From the NCBI GenBank assembly GCA_965208665.1, contig CBDBPH010000001.1, forward strand, positions 1,098,717 through 1,162,716: a DNA stretch of 64,000 nucleotides, given 5' to 3'. Each line of letters starts with the position of its first letter. The first letter of the stretch is position 1. The notes below the pieces were generated by a model that searched no databases, was not told where the DNA came from, and saw only the letters and a program-made list of their open reading frames with translations. Of this stretch, positions 16,991 to 26,700 are shown one piece after another. The position numbers and the translations under genes were made by a program. This DNA comes from Dehalococcoidia bacterium (lineage in GTDB: Bacteria; Chloroflexota; Dehalococcoidia; Bin125).

Positions 16991-18097
16991 TCAACCAGAC
17001 AACTCTCGCTCCAGCTCCAGGCGCGACCAGGCGGCATCGATCCCGGCCAACACGCCGCCGCTGACCAGCGAATGACCGCCCATCATCACGGCCGAGTCCT
17101 GGAGCATCGAGACCAATCCGCGCAACCGTTCATCCGTGATCACGTCCCAGCGGCCGAGGTCCGCCCAGAATCGGTCGCAACGTGAGACATCCCAACCGAG
17201 ATGAGAGAGAAACGGGCGGGTGTCCCAGAGGGTCGCATCGCCCAGGCCGTCAAGCGCCAACAAGAACCCGTCCTGCCCGGCCCACTCATACAGCTCACCC
17301 AGCAGGGACCGAGCGCGACGCTGACGCGATCGTAGCCCGCGCTCCTCCGACAACACCCTGACCCGACAGGACGTGTCGCGATCTACTGCCGCCCAGTCCG
17401 AGCCGCTCACTCGTCCGGCGATCATGAGCTCGGCATCTTGCCGCGTCATGACGTCGAAGACCGTGAACGCCAACTGGACCGGCTCATCCAACTCAGGCTG
17501 ACGCGCGAGTGCGGCGCTTGTCGCTTGGCCGATCTCCAGCGATCCCACACTCGCAGCAGCCTTCAACACCGTTACGTCTGCCGGTGTGTCGATGTCCAGT
17601 ACGGAACGCGCCGACCGCTCATACGACACGACTGGTACATCACTGCCATCCCTGATCAGCAACGCGAATCGGTTGTCAACCGATTCGCCGGCCACGCAAC
17701 TCAGCAAGCGGCCAGCGGGCACCCCGATCCAGTCGCAGGAGAACATTCGGTTGGCCGTCGCCACGCCTGACTCGATCGCCTCACGCACCGACGACCAATC
17801 ATCTACGGTCATCGCCGGCATGCCGGAACCGGCGTAGCAGACCGGCCCACTCACATCGGCGGACGCCGCTGTCACGATGTCGCCGATCAGTTGCTCCTCA
17901 GTGGTTTCCTGGACAGACAGGTCGCCAATGGATTCGGTCGAAAACACCCGCACTCGATCGAATCCCGCCGCCTGCGCGCGCTCCGCCGTGTCTCGGAGCA
18001 CTGCGGCGCGCACCTCGTCGACCATCCGAACCGGAACGCAGTCATCACCAAATGGCCGATAGCAAAGCCAGAACTCTGAATTGCGACTGCCCGACAT
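16991..18097 (-). CDS. Hypothetical protein (possible MobA-like nucleotidyltransferase-fold N-domain)
   Basis: 369 aa from MSGSRNSEFW (ATG at 18097). Contains VLDIDTPADV, which resembles the DIDTPEDL motif of MobA/CofC-like NTP transferases, with no further recognisable signature. The upstream 41 codons of the track ORF overlap comF and were trimmed. Confidence 0.45.
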   Translation of the reverse strand: MSGSRNSEFWLCYRPFGDDCVPVRMVDEVRAAVLRDTAERAQAAGFDRVRVFSTESIGDLSVQETTEEQLIGDIVTAASADVSGPVCYAGSGMPAMTVDDWSSVREAIESGVATANRMFSCDWIGVPAGRLLSCVAGESVDNRFALLIRDGSDVPVVSYERSARSVLDIDTPADVTVLKAAASVGSLEIGQATSAALARQPELDEPVQLAFTVFDVMTRQDAELMIAGRVSGSDWAAVDRDTSCRVRVLSEERGLRSRQRRARSLLGELYEWAGQDGFLLALDGLGDATLWDTRPFLSHLGWDVSRCDRFWADLGRWDVITDERLRGLVSMLQDSAVMMGGHSLVSGGVLAGIDAAWSRLELERELSG

Positions 18098-18098
18098 C

Positions 18099-18812
18099 TC
18101 AGTCTGCCCGAGCCGCCGTCCAGGCATCGACGGCCCTCGCTCCGGCGGCGAGCAGCGTCCGAGCCGCCTCTGAAAGCGTCGAAGTCGTCGTCGACACATC
18201 GTCCACCAGCAGCACTCCACGACCCTTCACGAGCGATTCCTCGGCGGCGAAGGCGTTGGTCACGATGCTCCGCCGATCGACGCGCGACTTGGCCTGCGCC
18301 TGTCTCGGACCCCACCAGCCTCGACGACGCAGCGCCCGTGTCTCCAGCCTCATCCGTGTCCGTTCCGCCACGACCCGCGCCAGGTGCTCCGCCTGATTGC
18401 CGCCGCGTCGGCGCTTGCGCAACAGCGGGATCGGAATCGGAACGATCATCTCGATGTCGCGGGCTGGCTCGATCTTTCCACTTGTTTCGACCAACAGCCG
18501 CGCCAGATCCTTGACGCCGCGATGCTTCAGCGCCAGCACGGCCGCGCGCGCCGGTCCGTCGTACACGAATCCGGAGCGCAACTCGCGCAGGGGTAATGGC
18601 CTGGACAGGCAGTTTCGGCAGACCGGCGACTCCGAGGTCAGCCAGCAGTGGCGGCAACGCTTGCCGTCGGCACGCTGCATGAGTGCGCGACACGGGCCGC
18701 AAATCAGGTCGCCGGCCGCTCCACACGACGCACAGTGTGGGGGCAAGGCGACATCGATCAGGGCCTGCAGGGCGCCCAGCGCGAGACCGACCGGCCGATA
18801 GACTGGATCCAT
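18099..18812 (-). CDS. comF: ComF-family phosphoribosyltransferase (ComFC-like)
   Basis: Start trimmed to MDPVYRP (ATG at 18812). N-terminal Zn-ribbon CxxC...CxxC (PPHCASCGAAG...CGPC; CRHCW...CRNC) followed by a PRTase domain (VLLVDDVSTTTSTL). The upstream 123 codons of the track ORF are S/R-rich and rejected. Confidence 0.8.
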   Translation of the reverse strand: MDPVYRPVGLALGALQALIDVALPPHCASCGAAGDLICGPCRALMQRADGKRCRHCWLTSESPVCRNCLSRPLPLRELRSGFVYDGPARAAVLALKHRGVKDLARLLVETSGKIEPARDIEMIVPIPIPLLRKRRRGGNQAEHLARVVAERTRMRLETRALRRRGWWGPRQAQAKSRVDRRSIVTNAFAAEESLVKGRGVLLVDDVSTTTSTLSEAARTLLAAGARAVDAWTAARAD

Positions 18813-19515
18813 GCGCCTCACCGTACAACTCTTCGCCAACCTCGCCGAGACCTGTGGAGCGCGCCAGATCGAACTCTGCGACCTGCCACAGCCGCTGACC
18901 GCGTCGCTGGTCATGGACGCGTTCGTCGACCGATTCCCGCACGTCGACGGGATGCGCGATTCGATCATGTTCGCGGTCAACGCCGAGTACGTCTCAGCCG
19001 ACCATCCAATCACCTCCTGCGACGAAGTCGCTCTGATCCCGCCGGTGAGCGGAGGTTCGAATAGCGACGCGCTGTTCAAGATCACGCGCGACGAGCTCGA
19101 CCCGACGGAACTGCACGACCTCGTCCTCTCGCCCGAGGCTGGGGCCGTCTCGCTCTTTTTCGGGGTCGTCCGCAACAACAATCTCGGCCGCGATGTCGAT
19201 TTCCTCGAGTACGACGCCTACCCGGCGATGGCCACCAAGGTCATGCGTCAGATTGCCGACGAGATCCGGGAACGCTGGGATGTGCTCGACATCGCCATGC
19301 ACCACCGCATTGGACGTCTGGAGATCGGCGAGGCTTCGGTCGCCGTTGCGGTTGCCTCAGCCCATCGAGGCGAGGGGATCGAGGCTTGCCACTACGGCAT
19401 CGACCGGCTCAAGGCCATCGTTCCAATCTGGAAGAAAGAGGTCTGGGCCGACGGCGAGGAATGGATCGAAGGCTCGCTCACCCCCTCCGCCGAGGTCGAC
19501 GCCGGGACTGAGTGA
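18811..19515 (+). CDS. Fused MoaD-MoaE molybdopterin synthase (MoaX-like)
   Basis: The N-terminal ~80 aa are a MoaD-like ubiquitin-fold (MRLTVQLFANLAE...ALIPPVSGG) ending in the GlyGly motif. The sequence continues in-frame into the MoaE domain (LFFGVVRNNNLGRDVDFLEYDAYPAMA...HRIGRLEIGEASVAVAVASAHRGEG...IVPIWKKE). Confidence 0.85.
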   Translation: MRLTVQLFANLAETCGARQIELCDLPQPLTASLVMDAFVDRFPHVDGMRDSIMFAVNAEYVSADHPITSCDEVALIPPVSGGSNSDALFKITRDELDPTELHDLVLSPEAGAVSLFFGVVRNNNLGRDVDFLEYDAYPAMATKVMRQIADEIRERWDVLDIAMHHRIGRLEIGEASVAVAVASAHRGEGIEACHYGIDRLKAIVPIWKKEVWADGEEWIEGSLTPSAEVDAGTE

Positions 19516-20929
19516 TTATCACCGCCTGCTGATCGGTCCGATAGTCTTTCGCCTTGATGTGATGGACCACACCCCGCTGGCTGTCGAGCAGCCGCGATGC
19601 CAGTCGTGGGTCGAGGCTCTCGGGCGGCACGTTGGTCGTAATCAACGTCGGCGACCGCCGGAGGTAGCGGGACGCGCAGAGTTGGTAGAGCTTCTCGCTC
19701 GCCCACTCAGTCGGCTGATGAGCACCCAAGTCGTCGAGAACCAAGAGGTCCACGTCCTTGAGTCGGGCGAACATTGACTCAAACGACGCTTCGCCCTCGT
19801 CCCGGTACGAAGCCCGCAAGGCATCAAGCAGCTCGGGAACCACAGCAAAACAGACGCTGTTACCGGCGGCGAGCCGATCGTTCGCTGCCGCCGCTGCCAG
19901 ATGAGTCTTGCCAACACCAGTGCCTCCGATCAATGTCAACCAGCCGCCGGGTTCTTCCGTCCAGTCCATCACCGCCCGCTTCGACACCGCTAGATTCTCT
20001 GCGTCACCGCGGCCGCCCAGCCCTTGCTCGCGGAATCCGTCGAACGAGTATTGCGACAACACCTCCTCGGTCATCCCGCCGAACTCGCGATACCGCCCGC
20101 CAGCCTGCGCCGGTCCCAGCTCGAGTCGCAGCAGCTCCAGCGTCAAGAACGACTGCAGTCCAATCGCAGAAAGATCCGCCGCCTCCGCGACCAACACCGT
20201 CCGCAAACCGCTGTTTCTCCGGTGATTGAGCAGTTGGAACAGCTTCTCTCGAGCCCAGTCGGTCGGGGAGATGCAGTCGAGATCGTCCAGGATCAGGAAT
20301 GCCGCGTCGCGCACGTGCTCAAACAGGAGCGCGTACGAGAGGTCGCCGCCGCTGGGCGCATTCATCGCCGCCCGCAATCGATCCAGAAGGTCGGCCGCGA
20401 CGAAGTACAGCGCGGGTCGGCCGGCCGCGATCCGCCGATTCGCCATTTCCGCCGACAGACGCGTGCGTCCCGAGCCCGCAACGCCGGTCAGCAGCAGCCA
20501 GCCCGGTTCGTCGTCGCTGTCGGCGAAGTCGCATGCCGATGCTGCCGGTTCCTGCGATGCCTCTTCGTCGCTCAGCCGAGCATCCGACAATGGTCCCAGA
20601 TTACTCAGCCGCTGCAGCCGCGCCGCGGTGAGCGCTTCTTCCTCCGCTCGCCGACATTCGCACGGCTGAACCCGGCCGAAGTCCGGATCGCCAACCGGTC
20701 GTGAGACGCGGACGTAGCCGGCCCCACCGCAGATTTCGCAGCGCGGTTCACCGTCCGGCGTCCAGAGCGAATCGTCGCGCTCCGGCGCGTCCGTATCACT
20801 CCCGGAAGAGGTGTCGGTAGCGCGACGATTCCAGCCCGCCAGCAGCGGACCGAGCCGTTGCATCTCCGCCATCGCGACCCTCCTTGTCTCGACCCGAAGC
20901 GTCCCAGCGCTCGAGGATGGCCTGGACAT
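19478..20929 (-). CDS. DnaC/DnaI/IstB-like AAA+ helicase-loader protein with N-terminal zinc ribbon and internally duplicated ATPase module
   Basis: Zn-ribbon CEICGG...CEC. Module 1 has GVAGSGRT (Walker A Lys replaced by Arg) and LILDDLD. Module 2 has GGTGVGKTHLA, LLVLDDLG and a TLITTN sensor region. The true start is probably downstream of 20929 (for example VAMAEM) because of overlap with the upstream gene. Confidence 0.75.
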   Translation of the reverse strand: MSRPSSSAGTLRVETRRVAMAEMQRLGPLLAGWNRRATDTSSGSDTDAPERDDSLWTPDGEPRCEICGGAGYVRVSRPVGDPDFGRVQPCECRRAEEEALTAARLQRLSNLGPLSDARLSDEEASQEPAASACDFADSDDEPGWLLLTGVAGSGRTRLSAEMANRRIAAGRPALYFVAADLLDRLRAAMNAPSGGDLSYALLFEHVRDAAFLILDDLDCISPTDWAREKLFQLLNHRRNSGLRTVLVAEAADLSAIGLQSFLTLELLRLELGPAQAGGRYREFGGMTEEVLSQYSFDGFREQGLGGRGDAENLAVSKRAVMDWTEEPGGWLTLIGGTGVGKTHLAAAAANDRLAAGNSVCFAVVPELLDALRASYRDEGEASFESMFARLKDVDLLVLDDLGAHQPTEWASEKLYQLCASRYLRRSPTLITTNVPPESLDPRLASRLLDSQRGVVHHIKAKDYRTDQQAVIITQSRRRPRRRG

Positions 20930-21500
20930 ATCGCCAGTTGCGGACGTTGTTCGCCGCCGCCTCGGCGAACGCGTCGTGTAACCACTCCAAGCCGAAGCGC
21001 GATTCCGCCGATTTGACCTCTTCCGCCAGGATCGGCGGCATCACGGTCCCGAATGCACTCTGCCAGATTTCGGGGACCGAGGAGTGGATGGGCTCACGGC
21101 CGTACACCGGCTGCGCGACTGGCGGCAGCGAGGCGGACTCCAGCGCCCTCCGGCCGTCGGCGTCGTTGAGCGCAATCCACTCCGTCCAGACGCCGTCCTG
21201 GATCGCACGTGCCCGCAACAACGAGCCACGCTCCACCGCGAGGTTGAGTCCGTCCGCAAACGCCTCGTTGACCTCGCGTTGCCCGCACATGTTGGCCAAC
21301 GCCTCAATCATCGCGCGTGTCTCCCGGAGGTCTTTGCTTGACAGACGGCGCGGGTATCGGCGCACCCTGGAGAGTCCGTCAGCGGTGTACAACGTCACGA
21401 TGAGCTCCGCCGGGTCGGACATCAACGGCGCCAGATCGCGCAGCAACGCCTGAGGCAGCGGCGTCACCGGCGCACCAGAGGCGAAGCCGTCGAACGTCAT
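20796..21500 (-). CDS. DnaD-domain protein (DnaD/DnaB-loader family, DDBH2 C-terminal domain)
   Basis: 234 aa. The C-terminal region FGLEWLHDAFAEAAANNVRNWRYVQAILERW carries the YxxxIxxxW signature of the DnaD/DnaB_2 domain. Its start overlaps the dnaB stop. Confidence 0.65.
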   Translation of the reverse strand: MTFDGFASGAPVTPLPQALLRDLAPLMSDPAELIVTLYTADGLSRVRRYPRRLSSKDLRETRAMIEALANMCGQREVNEAFADGLNLAVERGSLLRARAIQDGVWTEWIALNDADGRRALESASLPPVAQPVYGREPIHSSVPEIWQSAFGTVMPPILAEEVKSAESRFGLEWLHDAFAEAAANNVRNWRYVQAILERWDASGRDKEGRDGGDATARSAAGGLESSRYRHLFRE

Positions 21501-22987
21501 CAGAACTCATCCATCCCCGGTTCGGGCTGCGCATAGAAGTCCTCGAACTTGGCCACCGCAGGCACAAAGCGCACATCAACTCGACCCACCGCGCCATGTC
21601 GATGCTTCGCCACCAGCAGTTGGGCGACCTCGTGTTGGCCGCCGTGAATCGCGTCCGCGACCAGATCATCCTGGTAATCCTCACGGTCGTACATGTCCTC
21701 GCGGTAGATGAAGATCACCACGTCGGCGTCCTGCTCGATCGAGCCGCTCTCGCGCAGGTCCGAGAGTTGCGGTACCGGCGGATGGCGTCGCTCCACCGCA
21801 CGCGAGAGCTGCGACAGAGCCAGGATCGGGATTTCCAGCTCGCGCGCGATCTCCTTCAGCGTTCGCGAGATCAGCGAAATCTCGCTGACTCGGTTCGTGT
21901 CGGCCGGCGCTCGCGAAAACCCATGCACGAGCTGGATATGGTCCACAATGATCAAGCCCAGACCGTTCTGGCCGCTCCCGCGTCGATGCGCCTGCTCCTG
22001 CAGCCTCGTGTGCAGATTTCGCGACTTGGCCCGAATCTCGGCCAGCGTCTGTCCGGCCGTGTCATCGATGTGGATCTCCGCCCCGCTCAGCAGCCCAATG
22101 GCTCGAGAGATGCGACCTTCCTGTTCCTCGGTGTGCCGACCTACACGCAGCCGGCCGCTCTCCACACGCGACTCGGCCGAGACCAATCTCGACGCGACCT
22201 GCTCAGCCGACATCTCGAGAGAAAAGATCGCCACGGCCAACTGCTGGCCGAGCGCCGCATTGCGAGCGATTGTCAGCGCGAGCGCCGATTTGCCCACCGA
22301 TGGACGAGCCGCCAGCACGACCAGGTCCGAGCCGTGCATGCCCTCGTTCAGCAGCACGTCCAAATCCTGGAAACCGGTGCGAGTCGGCCCCTGGACTCCT
22401 GAGTCCTCCTGCGACCCATCACTCAGGACATCTCCCAGGAGATCCTGGAGCAACCGGAAGTCCTGACGCCGATCGGCGCCGCGAATGCCGTAGAGCAGTT
22501 CCACCGCGCGCGTCAGCGACTCGCCGACGTTGGGATCGGCCTCGTAGGCAAGCTCACCAATCTCGCCGGCGGCGCGGATCATGTCACGATACGTCGCCGC
22601 CCGCTGGACCAGTCGCGCGTAGTGCTCCGCCCCGACGGTCGCCGGCAACTCGTAGACGAGCTGGTTCAGATATGCCTGTCCACCGGCCTCCGACAGCCGA
22701 TTCTGGGCTCCCAACTCCGCGGCCACCGTGATCTGGTCGATCGCTTCGTAGCGATCAAAGACGGCCAGCACCGCCGCGAAGATCGCACGGTGACGCGGAT
22801 CCATGAAGTCTTCGGGGACGAGCATCCCCGCCAGTCGCTCGTAGATGCCCGGCTCAGCGAGGATCGCACCGAGGACAGACTGCTCGGCCGGCTGGTCCTG
22901 CGGCACGCCTCTCGGCGCCGCACGCGTCCGGCCGTTTTGGCCGAACTCGTCCGTCAACTCGTCGTATGCGGGATCGCTAGAGACCAC
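21500..22987 (-). CDS. dnaB: Replicative DNA helicase DnaB
   Basis: 495 aa with an N-terminal helical domain (SVLGAILAEP) and a RecA-like domain with GARPSVGKSALAL Walker A and IIVDHIQL Walker B. Conserved rplI-dnaB linkage. Confidence 0.95.
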   Translation of the reverse strand: MVSSDPAYDELTDEFGQNGRTRAAPRGVPQDQPAEQSVLGAILAEPGIYERLAGMLVPEDFMDPRHRAIFAAVLAVFDRYEAIDQITVAAELGAQNRLSEAGGQAYLNQLVYELPATVGAEHYARLVQRAATYRDMIRAAGEIGELAYEADPNVGESLTRAVELLYGIRGADRRQDFRLLQDLLGDVLSDGSQEDSGVQGPTRTGFQDLDVLLNEGMHGSDLVVLAARPSVGKSALALTIARNAALGQQLAVAIFSLEMSAEQVASRLVSAESRVESGRLRVGRHTEEQEGRISRAIGLLSGAEIHIDDTAGQTLAEIRAKSRNLHTRLQEQAHRRGSGQNGLGLIIVDHIQLVHGFSRAPADTNRVSEISLISRTLKEIARELEIPILALSQLSRAVERRHPPVPQLSDLRESGSIEQDADVVIFIYREDMYDREDYQDDLVADAIHGGQHEVAQLLVAKHRHGAVGRVDVRFVPAVAKFEDFYAQPEPGMDEF

Positions 22988-23614: not shown

Positions 23615-23732
23615 CAGATTGCTCCGCTCGATCCCTCGGACATACCTCACAACCATACCGACCCATGGCAATCGACCCAACACACATTGCAACAGACGAA
23701 CGTGCGTTCACTATAGAATTCGTGTGCGTCAT

Positions 23733-26700
23733 TTACAACCCAGCCGCGCTGTCACCCGCCGGAGCCCGTGATGCCGGCGGCTCGGCGATCGTCGCGCTCC
23801 CTCGCTCGCCGAGCGTCTTCCCAACCATCTGCACGACCTGATCGTTCGCCCGCAACCGCCACTCATCCGAGCACCGCAGCACTTCCACCCGATCACCGCC
23901 GCGAATGCGCAGATACACCAAGTCTGGGCCGGCGTGCATCATCTTCATCGCGGTCAGAGCGCCCTCGAGTTGCTCCATCAACTCAACATCGGCCGACTCA
24001 TCGCCCGACTCATCGATCGTGATCCAGAGGGCGGAACCGGCGGTTTCACCGACCGGTGCCGAAACCGGCAGCGGCGCCGGTTCCGCGGCTGCAGTCGGTG
24101 CAGGCAGTGGCTGCCGAGGTTTCAGCATCCAGGGCGGCGGCGACGCCTGCTTGATCGGCGGGACCGTCACGCCGGCTGCCGATGCGGCCGCGGCCTCGGC
24201 CTGCGTCTGCAGCGCTGGCGCGGACGACATCTGCTCGCTCCACGGCTCGACCGATTCCACAGCCAGGGTCAGCCGATCCATCCTGGCCCTGATGCTGACC
24301 GTCACGATCACGATCTGGTTTGGCTGCCATAGCTCCCGGGTCCGCGCCCATTGATCCGGCCAGACCGTAACCTCGGCCGTGCCGGACAGATCCTCCAACA
24401 TGATCGCCGCAAACGGATCGCCCTTCCGCGTCGTCAGCGAGCGCACGCTGCCCACCAGTCCGGCCACCGTCTGCCTGTTCCCGACCATGTCCTCGGTCAG
24501 CTCCGACAGCTGCGCATCGACCCGACCCTGCAGCGCCCGCGTCGCCGCCTGCAGCGGGTGCTCAGAGACGTAGGCGCCCAGCAACTCGCGTTCCCAGTTC
24601 AACTGCTCATGCGGCGTCGCGTCCATGTCTTCCTCGAGCGTGACGCTCGGCGTCGGTGTCTCGACCTCCGTGCCGAACAGATCGAACATCGACGTCTGAC
24701 CGCTGTCGCGCAGCTCTTGCGCACGGCGAGCCCGTTTGATGATGTCCTCCGCCGCCGCCACCATCGCCCCGCGCGACTCGATCGAATCGAACGCTCCAGC
24801 CTTGGCCAGCGCCTCCAGCGCCCGACGGTTCATCGACTTCGTATCCAACCGCTCGGCGAGATCGCTGGCGCTGTCGATTGGGCCGTTCTCCTTGCGCTCC
24901 TCGATCAACGGCTCCACCGCCGCTCGACCGACGTTCTTGATTGTCCCCAGGCCGAAACGAATCGCGCTTCGGCCGTCGGCCATCTTCTCCAGCGTGAACG
25001 TCGCCTCGGAGCGATTCACGTCGGGCAGCAGCAGCGGAATCCCCAACCGGCCGCACTCCGCCGCCGCTTCCCGCACTCGATCGCTGTTACCCGAGGCGGC
25101 CCGCAGCACGGCCGCCATGTACGACGCCTTGTGGTTCGCCTTGAACCAGGCCGTCTGATACGCAATCGCCGCATACGAGACCGCGTGCGCCTTGTTGAAC
25201 GCATAGCCGGCGAACGGCTCGATCAGCTCAAAGATCGTCCGTGCGTCACCCTCGGAGTACCCGTTCGCCAGCGCTCCTTCGGTGAAGTTGCCCCGTTCGC
25301 CCTCCATCACCGAAGCGATCTTCTTGCCCATCGCCTTCCGCATGATGTCCGCCTGCCCCAGGGTGTAGCCGGCGAACTTGCGCGCGATGTGCAACACCTG
25401 ATCCTGGTAGACGATCACGCCGTACGTATCGTCAAGGACCTCTCCGAGGTCGTCGTGCGGATACGACACACCGACGCGCCCGTGCTTGCTTTCAATGAAG
25501 CGGGGGATGTGCTCCATCGGCCCGGGGCGATACAGAGCCAACAGCGCCGCCAGATCTCGAATCGACGTCGGTTTCAGGTCTTCCACGACCCGCCGCATTC
25601 CGCCTGACTCCAGCTGGAACACACCGAATGTGTCGCCGGTCGCCAGCCGTTCGTACGTCGCCGGATCACCGTCCGGCAGATTGAGATAGTCGACCTCAAC
25701 GCCCTCGTGCTCGCGGACCAGGGCCACCGCCTCCTCAAGGATCGTCAGGTTCGTCAGACCGAGGAAATCCATCTTCAACAGGCCGACCGCCGCTACCTCG
25801 TCCATCCCCCACTGCGTCATCGGGATGAAGACGTCGTCCGACGACTCGTTCACCGGTCGCCGGAGCGGCACATTCTCGGCCAGCGGCTCCTGTGAGATCA
25901 CGACCCCAGCCGCGTGGGTTGAGGTGTTGCGCACCACCCCGTTCAGCCGCTGCGCGTAGGACAACAACTCGGCGACCGTCGGATCGTCCTGCTGCGCCGC
26001 CTGCAAATCCTGCGACTGTGCAATCGCATCCGCCACCGAGATGTTGAGCTGGTTCGGCACCATCCTGGCCACACGATCGGTGTCGCCAAGCGGCACGCCC
26101 AACGCGCGACCCGAGTCGCGGATCGCCGCCTTCGCTCCCAGCGTGCCAAAGGTGATGATCTGCGCCACGCGATCATGCCCGTACTTCTCGGCGACGTAGC
26201 GGATCACTTCATCGCGCCGATTATCGGCGAAATCCATGTCGATATCGGGCATTTCCCGGCGTTCCAGGTTGAGGAAGCGCTCAAACACCAGGTCGTACTC
26301 CATCGGATCGATGTCGGTGATATCGAGGCAGTACAAGACCAGGCTCGCCGCCGCAGACCCGCGCACCGCTCTCGCGATCCCGCGATTCTTCGCGAAGTGG
26401 GCGAAGTCCATCACGATCAAGAAGTACTCGGCAAAGCCGGTCTCCTCGATCACGTGCAGCTCGTATGCCAGTCGATCGCGATGACCCTGAGGCGGTGCCC
26501 CGTAACGCTGATCCAGGCCGCGGTAGGCGATATCAGATAGGTGTTCCAGGGCCGTCATGCCCTCGGGGATGTCCGGCTGTGGCAGGCGTAGACGGTCAAA
26601 CTCCAGCTTGACATCGCAACGTTCCGCGACGAGCTGAGTATTCGTCACCGCCTCCTGCAGATCGCTGAAGTTGTCCAGCATGTACTGCTCGGACGTGAGG

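Follow-up and report, generated by a model that had tools for sequence, protein, structure and literature searches.

A probable resident operon encoding DnaB and helicase-loading proteins in a Dehalococcoidia genome, with a loader built of two tandem AAA+ modules

Helicase loading in bacteria is known almost wholly from DnaC of Escherichia coli, from DnaI, DnaD and DnaB of Bacillus and, now, also from DciA. Here we describe a locus on the minus strand of a metagenome-assembled genome (MAG) of a Dehalococcoidia bacterium, phylum Chloroflexota, in which the gene for the replicative helicase DnaB is followed by genes for a DnaD-type protein and for an AAA+ ATPase of the DnaC/DnaI/IstB superfamily; the analysis covered 64 kb around it (contig CBDBPH010000001.1, positions 1,098,717 to 1,162,716; hereafter the window, in whose own numbering all coordinates are given). 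We read the locus as a resident operon that encodes the replicative helicase together with its loading factors, in the order (rplI)-dnaB-dnaD-like-loader, and we put the probability of this reading at about 0.8. An earlier reading of the same DNA, made from the sequence only (the sequence-only reading), had placed rplI and dnaB ahead of a DnaD-type and an AAA+ gene on one strand, in a non-Firmicute lineage of high GC content, and we found every one of these elements where it had put them, the lineage being Chloroflexota and the GC content ~65%.

The closest precedent is Brezellec et al. 2016 (PMC5109545), who described one domestication of dna[CI] in Chloroflexi (domestication event 4), listed Anaerolinea, Chloroflexus, Roseiflexus, Dehalococcoides, Dehalogenimonas, Sphaerobacter and Thermomicrobium as having a resident dnaC/I and no dciA (Supplementary Data 1), and mentioned companion genes with a DnaB_2 motif (legend to Supplementary Fig. 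1). Their Chloroflexi dna[CI] and the loader gene of the window have in common family, phylum, a PF01695 product and a conserved chromosomal context, whereas the main text of that report speaks neither of tandem, duplicated or two-AAA+ modules nor of decay or operon junctions. As a PF01695 gene in a conserved context congruent with the phylum, the loader gene is a resident domesticated dna[CI] in the sense used there. The sequence-only reading had thought the arrangement possibly undescribed; an AAA+ loader with a DnaD-type partner outside the Firmicutes is correct but not new, since a resident loader without dciA had been reported for cultured Chloroflexi, while the tandem build of the loader, the lineage-specific decay of its modules and the rare four-module forms seem to be undescribed in the searchable literature. 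In that literature, which covers few subscription journals, searches for DnaD in Chloroflexi or for a loader of the replicative helicase with tandem AAA+ modules returned nothing relevant, and recent papers on Bacillus DnaD and DnaB still present these factors as a Firmicute feature.

The three genes, all on the minus strand, are linked through overlapping stop and start signals. The first, dnaB (21500..22987), starts with GTG and encodes a 495-residue replicative helicase (TIGR00665, 427 bits against a cut-off of 385; Pfam DnaB and DnaB_C), and its stop codon shares one base with the start codon of the DnaD-type gene (20796..21500; 234 residues) in a TGATG junction at 21498..21502 that can be read directly as ...GAG TTC TGATG ACG.... 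The overlap, already noticed in the sequence-only reading, measures 1 nt and fits translational coupling. The 3' end of the DnaD-type gene overlaps out of frame, by 77 nt as read directly (20796..20872), with the 5' end of the helicase-loader gene (19478..20872), whose 464-residue PF01695 product consists of an N-terminal helix, a four-Cys zinc ribbon, AAA+ module 1 and AAA+ module 2. We set the loader start at 20872 because a Shine-Dalgarno-like AAGGAGG (20885..20879, direct reading; 6-nt spacer), itself inside the DnaD-type coding sequence, stands before this ATG, and because the annotated lengths of loader homologues are 452–469 residues. The chosen ATG is M20 of the longest open reading frame (ORF; 483 residues), and it replaces the listed start of that frame, 20929. 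Upstream of dnaB lies rplI (ribosomal protein L9; 23027..23692, minus strand; Pfam Ribosomal_L9_N and Ribosomal_L9_C), which probably heads the transcription unit.

Relatives of the locus were collected by a scan of GTDB contigs, one genome per species, with eight DnaD-type sequences as query. The scan returned 352 relatives of the DnaD-type gene, and every one of the 80 loci kept for analysis has a Chloroflexota title (Dehalococcoidia, Anaerolineae, Caldilineae, Chloroflexia, Thermoflexales and Ardenticatenaceae), the closest being on a Dehalococcoidia chromosome, OZ244861.1 (3.1 Mb), with 89–97% identity over the operon; NCBI names the products of the homologues, from Chloroflexota MAGs, "DnaD domain protein" and "ATP-binding protein". 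Directly upstream of the DnaD-type gene we found dnaB in 74 of the 76 loci with enough flank (the automated count was 73, L072 being a false negative from a 2-nt overlap), and directly downstream of it, in each of the 74 testable loci, a loader with the zinc ribbon and two or more modules; rplI preceded dnaB in 55 of 76. The overlap between dnaB and the DnaD-type gene, measured in 77 loci, was 1 nt in 31, 4 nt in 22 and 8 nt in 5 (58/77 together). A loader ATG preceded by a Shine-Dalgarno sequence, with a dnaD/loader overlap of 68–83 nt, was present in 8 of the 13 relatives inspected (given as seven Dehalococcoidia-labelled loci plus L066 and L079), and two Anaerolineae-type loci among the 13 had an overlap of only 1–4 nt. 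The arrangement is conserved across the sampled classes of the phylum, as the sequence-only reading required of related genomes, and the locus is a resident, vertically inherited chromosomal operon. In two MAGs, of Anaerolineae and Thermoflexales (L050 and L064), the dnaD-like/loader pair is not preceded by dnaB, so the pair is separable from the helicase gene.

The middle product is a DnaD-type protein, securely so in its C-terminal domain and probably so in its N-terminal domain. It scored 32.4 bits against NCBIfam TIGR01446 (DnaD_dom; cut-off 24.95), a significant hit to a DnaD-domain model of the kind that the sequence-only reading had predicted. Its DDBH2 domain (residues ~142–202; 20895..21077, minus strand) ends in NNVRNWRYVQAILERW and is matched over residues 144–203 both in TIGR01446 and in phrog_186 ("DnaD-like helicase loader"); W189, Y191, I195 and W199 are invariant in 30 homologues, and the last three of these form the YxxxIxxxW motif pointed out in the sequence-only reading. 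A family profile built from the alignment of 30 matched B. subtilis DnaD (8ojj, 6.7e-9) and, besides it, two DnaD-domain structures in all, among them 2zc2 (3.7e-8). The AlphaFold2 model (mean predicted local distance difference test, pLDDT, 73.8) has a confident N-terminal domain, a four-helix C-terminal domain and a disordered tail, and its best Foldseek match was the full-length DnaD model 9a5c_B (E 9.7e-6). The N-terminal domain is probably a DDBH1-like winged helix (residues ~17–123; 21132..21452, minus strand; pLDDT 82–95) made of helices followed by a beta hairpin at 94–111, and the tail (20799..20894, minus strand; pLDDT <50) ends in SRYRHLFRE, a terminal motif conserved in the family alignment. 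The protein has a DDBH2 with YxxxIxxxW and a basic and aromatic tail and, together with its probable winged helix, the two-domain DnaD build; the tail of B. subtilis DnaD is also rich in such residues (PMC10201434). Sequence similarity to B. subtilis DnaD is limited to DDBH2.

The loader is a member of the DnaC/DnaI/IstB AAA+ superfamily (PF01695), with all motifs present in module 2 and, in the clade to which the window belongs, the fold but not the catalytic motifs kept in module 1. It scored 94.6 bits against Pfam IstB_IS21 (PF01695; cut-off 24.1) and 247 bits against phrog_50 ("DnaC-like helicase loader"), in two matched stretches each time. The best NCBIfam model was PRK08116 (166 bits against a cut-off of 189), and the closest solved structure by sequence was E. 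coli DnaC (6qel, 92 bits, in module 2). The sequence-only reading was right to call this an IstB/DnaC-like protein with an N-terminal zinc ribbon, went too far in likening the ribbon to that of DnaI, and saw a single AAA+ module where there are two in tandem, 43% identical over 110 residues. The four ribbon cysteines (C45, C48, C71 and C73 in the 464-residue numbering; 20654..20740, minus strand) have the spacing CxxC...CxC and belong to what is presumably the helicase-binding domain; all four are present in 75 of 76 family members, the four-Cys ribbon is of the PRK08116/phage type, and the ribbon region aligns collinearly with the N-terminus (CxxC...CxC...SNLG) of the DnaC-like gp09 of Bacillus phage IEBH. 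Module 1 (residues ~105–255; 20108..20560, minus strand) is degenerate, having GSGRT as its Walker A (R136) and a kept Walker B (D196/D197) on a modeled AAA+ core, and module 2 (residues ~265–445; 19538..20080, minus strand) is fully canonical (GVGKT with K322 as Walker A, D380/D381 as Walker B, N414 as sensor I, R423 and R427 in box VII, R445 as sensor II). The AlphaFold2 model (pLDDT 79.7) has two alpha/beta cores; in Foldseek searches single modules matched DnaA, DnaI, IstB and DnaC, and the whole chain matched p97-type tandem ATPases. We rejected three more specific identities: DnaI, for want of a match to DnaI_N (PF07319) at E up to 1 and with 72.4 bits against the equivalog cut-off of 228 (NF006505); E. 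coli-type DnaC, with 73.3 against 357 (NF005931) and in view of the two modules and zinc ribbon; and the IstB helper of the insertion sequence IS21, with 114.6 against 200 (NF038214) and with dnaB, dnaD-like and moaDE as neighbors.

Of the systems described so far, that of B. subtilis resembles the Chloroflexota locus in that a DnaD-type protein is paired with an AAA+ loader whose N-terminal domain binds zinc. It differs in that the Chloroflexota genes stand directly after dnaB in one coupled operon, in that a profile search of the window found no second DDBH protein of the B. subtilis DnaB type, and in that the Chloroflexota loader has two AAA+ modules, lacks DnaI_N and falls far under the DnaI equivalog cut-off. 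E. coli DnaC (6qel, 6qem) shares Walker A, Walker B, sensor I, the R-x3-R box VII pair and sensor II with module 2, but has a single AAA+ module, lacks both a zinc ribbon and a DnaD partner, and binds DnaB as a 6:6 complex. Type II AAA+ proteins (p97/Cdc48, NSF, ClpB) likewise carry two modules per chain, one of which tends to be catalytically weak; they belong, however, to the classic clade rather than the initiator/loader clade, stack into closed rings and have unrelated functions, and the resemblance is architectural only.

Comparison of the module sequences indicates that the two modules come from one old internal duplication. The loader reading frame is continuous in 75 complete relatives, and in loaders without a degenerate module the cores of module 1 and module 2 are on average 61% identical, against 40% to a phage DnaC-like protein. 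In a neighbor-joining tree of all modules, rooted on a phage DnaC-like protein and distorted by the degenerate module 1s, neither module 1 nor module 2 was monophyletic; in a best-hit analysis every non-degenerate module 1 lay nearer to the other module 1s than it did to any module 2. Since the non-degenerate module 1s are thus position-specific orthologues, we set aside both repeated duplication and strong gene conversion.

The modules have decayed unequally, and differently by lineage. Throughout the window's clade (42 sequences) module 1 has Arg in place of the Walker A Lys (42/42), has lost the sensor I Asn (E, A or G at that position), both box VII arginines (RLxSRL to GLQSFL) and the sensor II DYR motif, and in three relatives has lost the P-loop glycines as well (RPAAERT, APSPART, ESDDARM). 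It is full length in 42/42, with the Walker B DD and long stretches such as PTDWAREKLFQLLNHRRN invariant, and this argues for purifying selection. Module 2 has all its motifs invariant in the same 42, from Walker A and Walker B through sensor I and the box VII pair to sensor II. Among the other Chloroflexota loci sampled (33–34) the situation is mostly the opposite: module 1 has its Walker A Lys in 33 and its sensor I Asn in 25/34, and module 2 retains its arginines but has the sensor I Asn in only 8/34; a few loci that are labelled Dehalococcoidia but fall outside the window's clade stand in between, with the Lys of module 1 kept and its sensors I and II lost. Alignments by hidden Markov model (HMM) and BLAST put R427 opposite DnaC R216, not R220, and RLxSRL matches a DnaA-type R-x3-R pair; given this conflict we name these residues only the box VII arginine pair. 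In E. coli DnaC the K112R change abolishes ATPase activity and leaves loading of DnaB in vitro about as good as in the wild type, and N203A, R216D and R220D are defective (PMC8213410). Because its catalytic residues are lost and DnaC K112R has no ATPase activity, module 1 in the window's clade is very probably non-hydrolyzing, and it may retain nucleotide binding.

An exhaustive search found 391 loader relatives at E up to 1e-30 (50%-identity representatives), nearly all of the best 150 being 400–500 residues long, and the distant representatives that carry names belong to SAR202 or Chloroflexota. Two of the relatives, P0203 (827 residues; L163:4001-6484) and P0147 (839 residues; L162:5001-7520), carry four distinct AAA+ modules after a zinc ribbon, the last being the divergent one in both. 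They come from two metagenomic lineages, each is encoded directly after dnaB and a DnaB_2-domain gene, and P0203 was found on two contigs. The dnaB gene beside one of these four-module loaders (L163:1433-3259) encodes 608 residues with an intein (PF14890 Intein_splicing, precomputed Pfam). Other apparent extra-module loaders were not counted as such. In L063 (6530-8763), from an Anaerolineae MAG, a run of N lies inside module 2 with a partial third module after it, and since the internal repeat is near-identical we attribute the third module to a scaffolding gap; P0204, P0208 and P0285 (564–792 residues) have near-identical repeated segments or out-of-frame tails.

Drawing on Bacillus and E. 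coli, we suppose that DnaA would open oriC, that the DnaD-like protein would bind the origin or DnaA and bring in the helicase-loader complex, that the zinc-ribbon domain would grip the C-terminal face of DnaB, that the AAA+ modules would assemble with ATP on single-stranded DNA and hold the DnaB ring open, and that ATP hydrolysis in module 2 would free the loader. Module 1 in the window's clade would most likely be a non-hydrolyzing, perhaps nucleotide-binding, structural or regulatory module. Each chain has two AAA+ positions and one helicase-binding domain, so the stoichiometry of loader to helicase probably differs from the 6:6 of DnaB-DnaC; three loader chains per DnaB hexamer are one, speculative, possibility. 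We tentatively propose, at slightly less than even odds, that the Chloroflexota loader is a covalently concatenated oligomer, one zinc-ribbon domain with two, rarely four, DnaC-type modules, in which one end module decays by lineage (module 1 in the window's Dehalococcoidia clade, the last module in most other Chloroflexota sampled). The chains might then be pre-linked pieces of a loader spiral, fewer than the DnaB subunits, and the modules at its ends might be free to lose catalytic or trans-acting residues. If this is true, there would be fewer loader chains than DnaB subunits, the ATP sites would be hard-wired as unequal, and the loader assembly would possibly be finite, with end positions that do not need catalytic or trans-acting residues.

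Other explanations of the locus have to be weighed against a resident loading operon. That the pair is left over from a prophage replication module, or from an IS21-type (IstB) element, that chanced to land beside dnaB is what one might think on seeing that its AAA+ modules match IstB_IS21 and the PHROG family "DnaC-like helicase loader" and its companion the family "DnaD-like helicase loader", and Bacillus phage IEBH has a pair of the same layout, a DnaD-like gp08 overlapping a zinc-ribbon DnaC-like gp09, which fits an ancient phage origin. We reject a remnant of this kind as extremely improbable. The flanks are housekeeping genes, with no phage structural, integrase or IstA gene near the operon (the sequence-only reading had named such neighbors as what would betray a prophage or IS21 remnant), the GC content is uniform across the window without a compositional break at the locus, the IstB equivalog score is below its cut-off as given above, and the same three-gene order recurs in 74/76 and 74/74 loci from several classes of one phylum. 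The best phage matches of the loader are at most 37% identical and cover one module; the best 80 of more than 565 IMG/VR matches are all single-module (two modules in 0/80 of these viral loci), a two-module loader was not found among the phage and viral sequences compared, and tblastn with the DnaD-like protein gave no match either in IMG/VR or among 50,697 phage records. We do think it likely that the ancestor was a phage cassette such as IEBH gp08/gp09, of PRK08116 type: gene order, overlapping ends and CxxC...CxC...SNLG followed by AAA+ are shared, and IEBH gp09 aligns with module 2 at 34% identity over 178 residues, with a second segment collinear from the zinc ribbon into module 1. The differences are that phage loaders are single-module and that phage DnaD-like proteins are too distant for tblastn.

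If the locus is a resident operon, its main use might still be in PriA-type replication restart, with primosomes assembled at stalled forks, and not in initiation at oriC, or it might serve the two alike. B. subtilis DnaD, DnaB and DnaI act in both initiation and restart. A primosome assembly site is cited in PMC10201434, and ssb lies ~4 kb downstream of the operon on the same strand. For the cultured Chloroflexi listed in the supplement to PMC5109545, with one resident dna[CI] and no dciA, no other loader is known, so that initiation must also depend on the dna[CI] loader, and we regard this reading as unlikely. We consider it very unlikely that the doubling has no mechanistic meaning, module 1 being a decaying relic and the protein working like a single-module DnaI with a long linker. 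The loss of the Walker A Lys, sensor I, box VII arginines and sensor II from module 1, and of the P-loop glycines in a few relatives, would suit such a relic, but module 1 keeps its full length in all 42 clade members with the Walker B DD and PTDWAREKLFQLLNHRRN invariant, the two-module build is found in all 74 testable loci, four-module expansion has occurred in two metagenomic lineages, and in most other Chloroflexota loci sampled module 1 is a fully canonical module. To return to the operon for the helicase and its loading factors, several points weigh against it. The 234-residue product scored 19.7 against Pfam DnaB_2 (PF07261), slightly under the cut-off of 22, although PF07261 is recorded for many DnaD-type homologues and for the companion genes in L162 and L163. 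Foldseek of its N-terminal domain against that of DnaD (2v79) gave a probability of 0.97 and a TM-score of 0.46 on the target with an E-value of 0.03, which is weak, and PadR-type winged helices score similarly. The loader falls under every NCBIfam equivalog cut-off and has no DnaI_N, so its mode of helicase binding is assumed; the predicted template modeling score of its model is 0.47, which makes the relative placement of the two modules unreliable and the stoichiometry a guess; and the functional steps proposed for the Chloroflexota loader and DnaD-like protein all come by homology. Finally, a survey of DciA has reported that some of its homologues come from genomes labelled chloroflexi (bioRxiv 10.1101/2022.01.24.477630).

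If the reading is right, the route through DnaD and an AAA+ loader would be the fixed chromosomal solution of a whole second phylum, with helicase, adaptor and loader as one coupled unit. The family bears on questions raised by DnaC, namely which loader ATP sites need to bind or hydrolyze nucleotide, whether a full 6:6 complex is needed, and what role the ends of the AAA+ spiral have, and natural variants are on hand for these: a module with Walker A Lys changed to Arg, modules without sensor I or arginine fingers, and chains of two or four modules. For annotators the doubled loader and the long dnaD/loader overlap are a caution, as they lead to mis-called starts and assembly gaps (the 483-residue ORF in the window and L063, respectively).

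The surroundings of the operon are those of a housekeeping region. Upstream lies dnaE, and downstream are a convergent gene for a MoaD-MoaE fusion and then genes for a ComF-like phosphoribosyltransferase and a 409-residue ORF, glyA, rpsF and ssb. Searched with the family profiles, the six-frame ORFs of the window, taken all together, yielded no further DnaD-like or loader-like gene. Between 19000 and 24000 there is a single sigma-70-like promoter match (23710..23738, minus strand), a number within chance expectation; it sits right upstream of rplI, where dnaE ends, and a terminator scan gave only weak terminator-like matches, inside genes. Cumulative GC skew drops steadily over 1–64000 and the genes examined near the operon lie on the minus strand, which indicates that neither a replication origin nor a terminus lies in the 64 kb. 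The 409-residue ORF (16991..18220, minus strand), between the ComF-like gene and glyA, has no Pfam match at E up to 0.001. The MoaD-MoaE gene (18811..19515, plus strand) encodes a ThiS-family MoaD and MoaE fused into one 234-residue product, and its 3' end overlaps the 3' end of the loader gene convergently by 38 nt (19478–19515).

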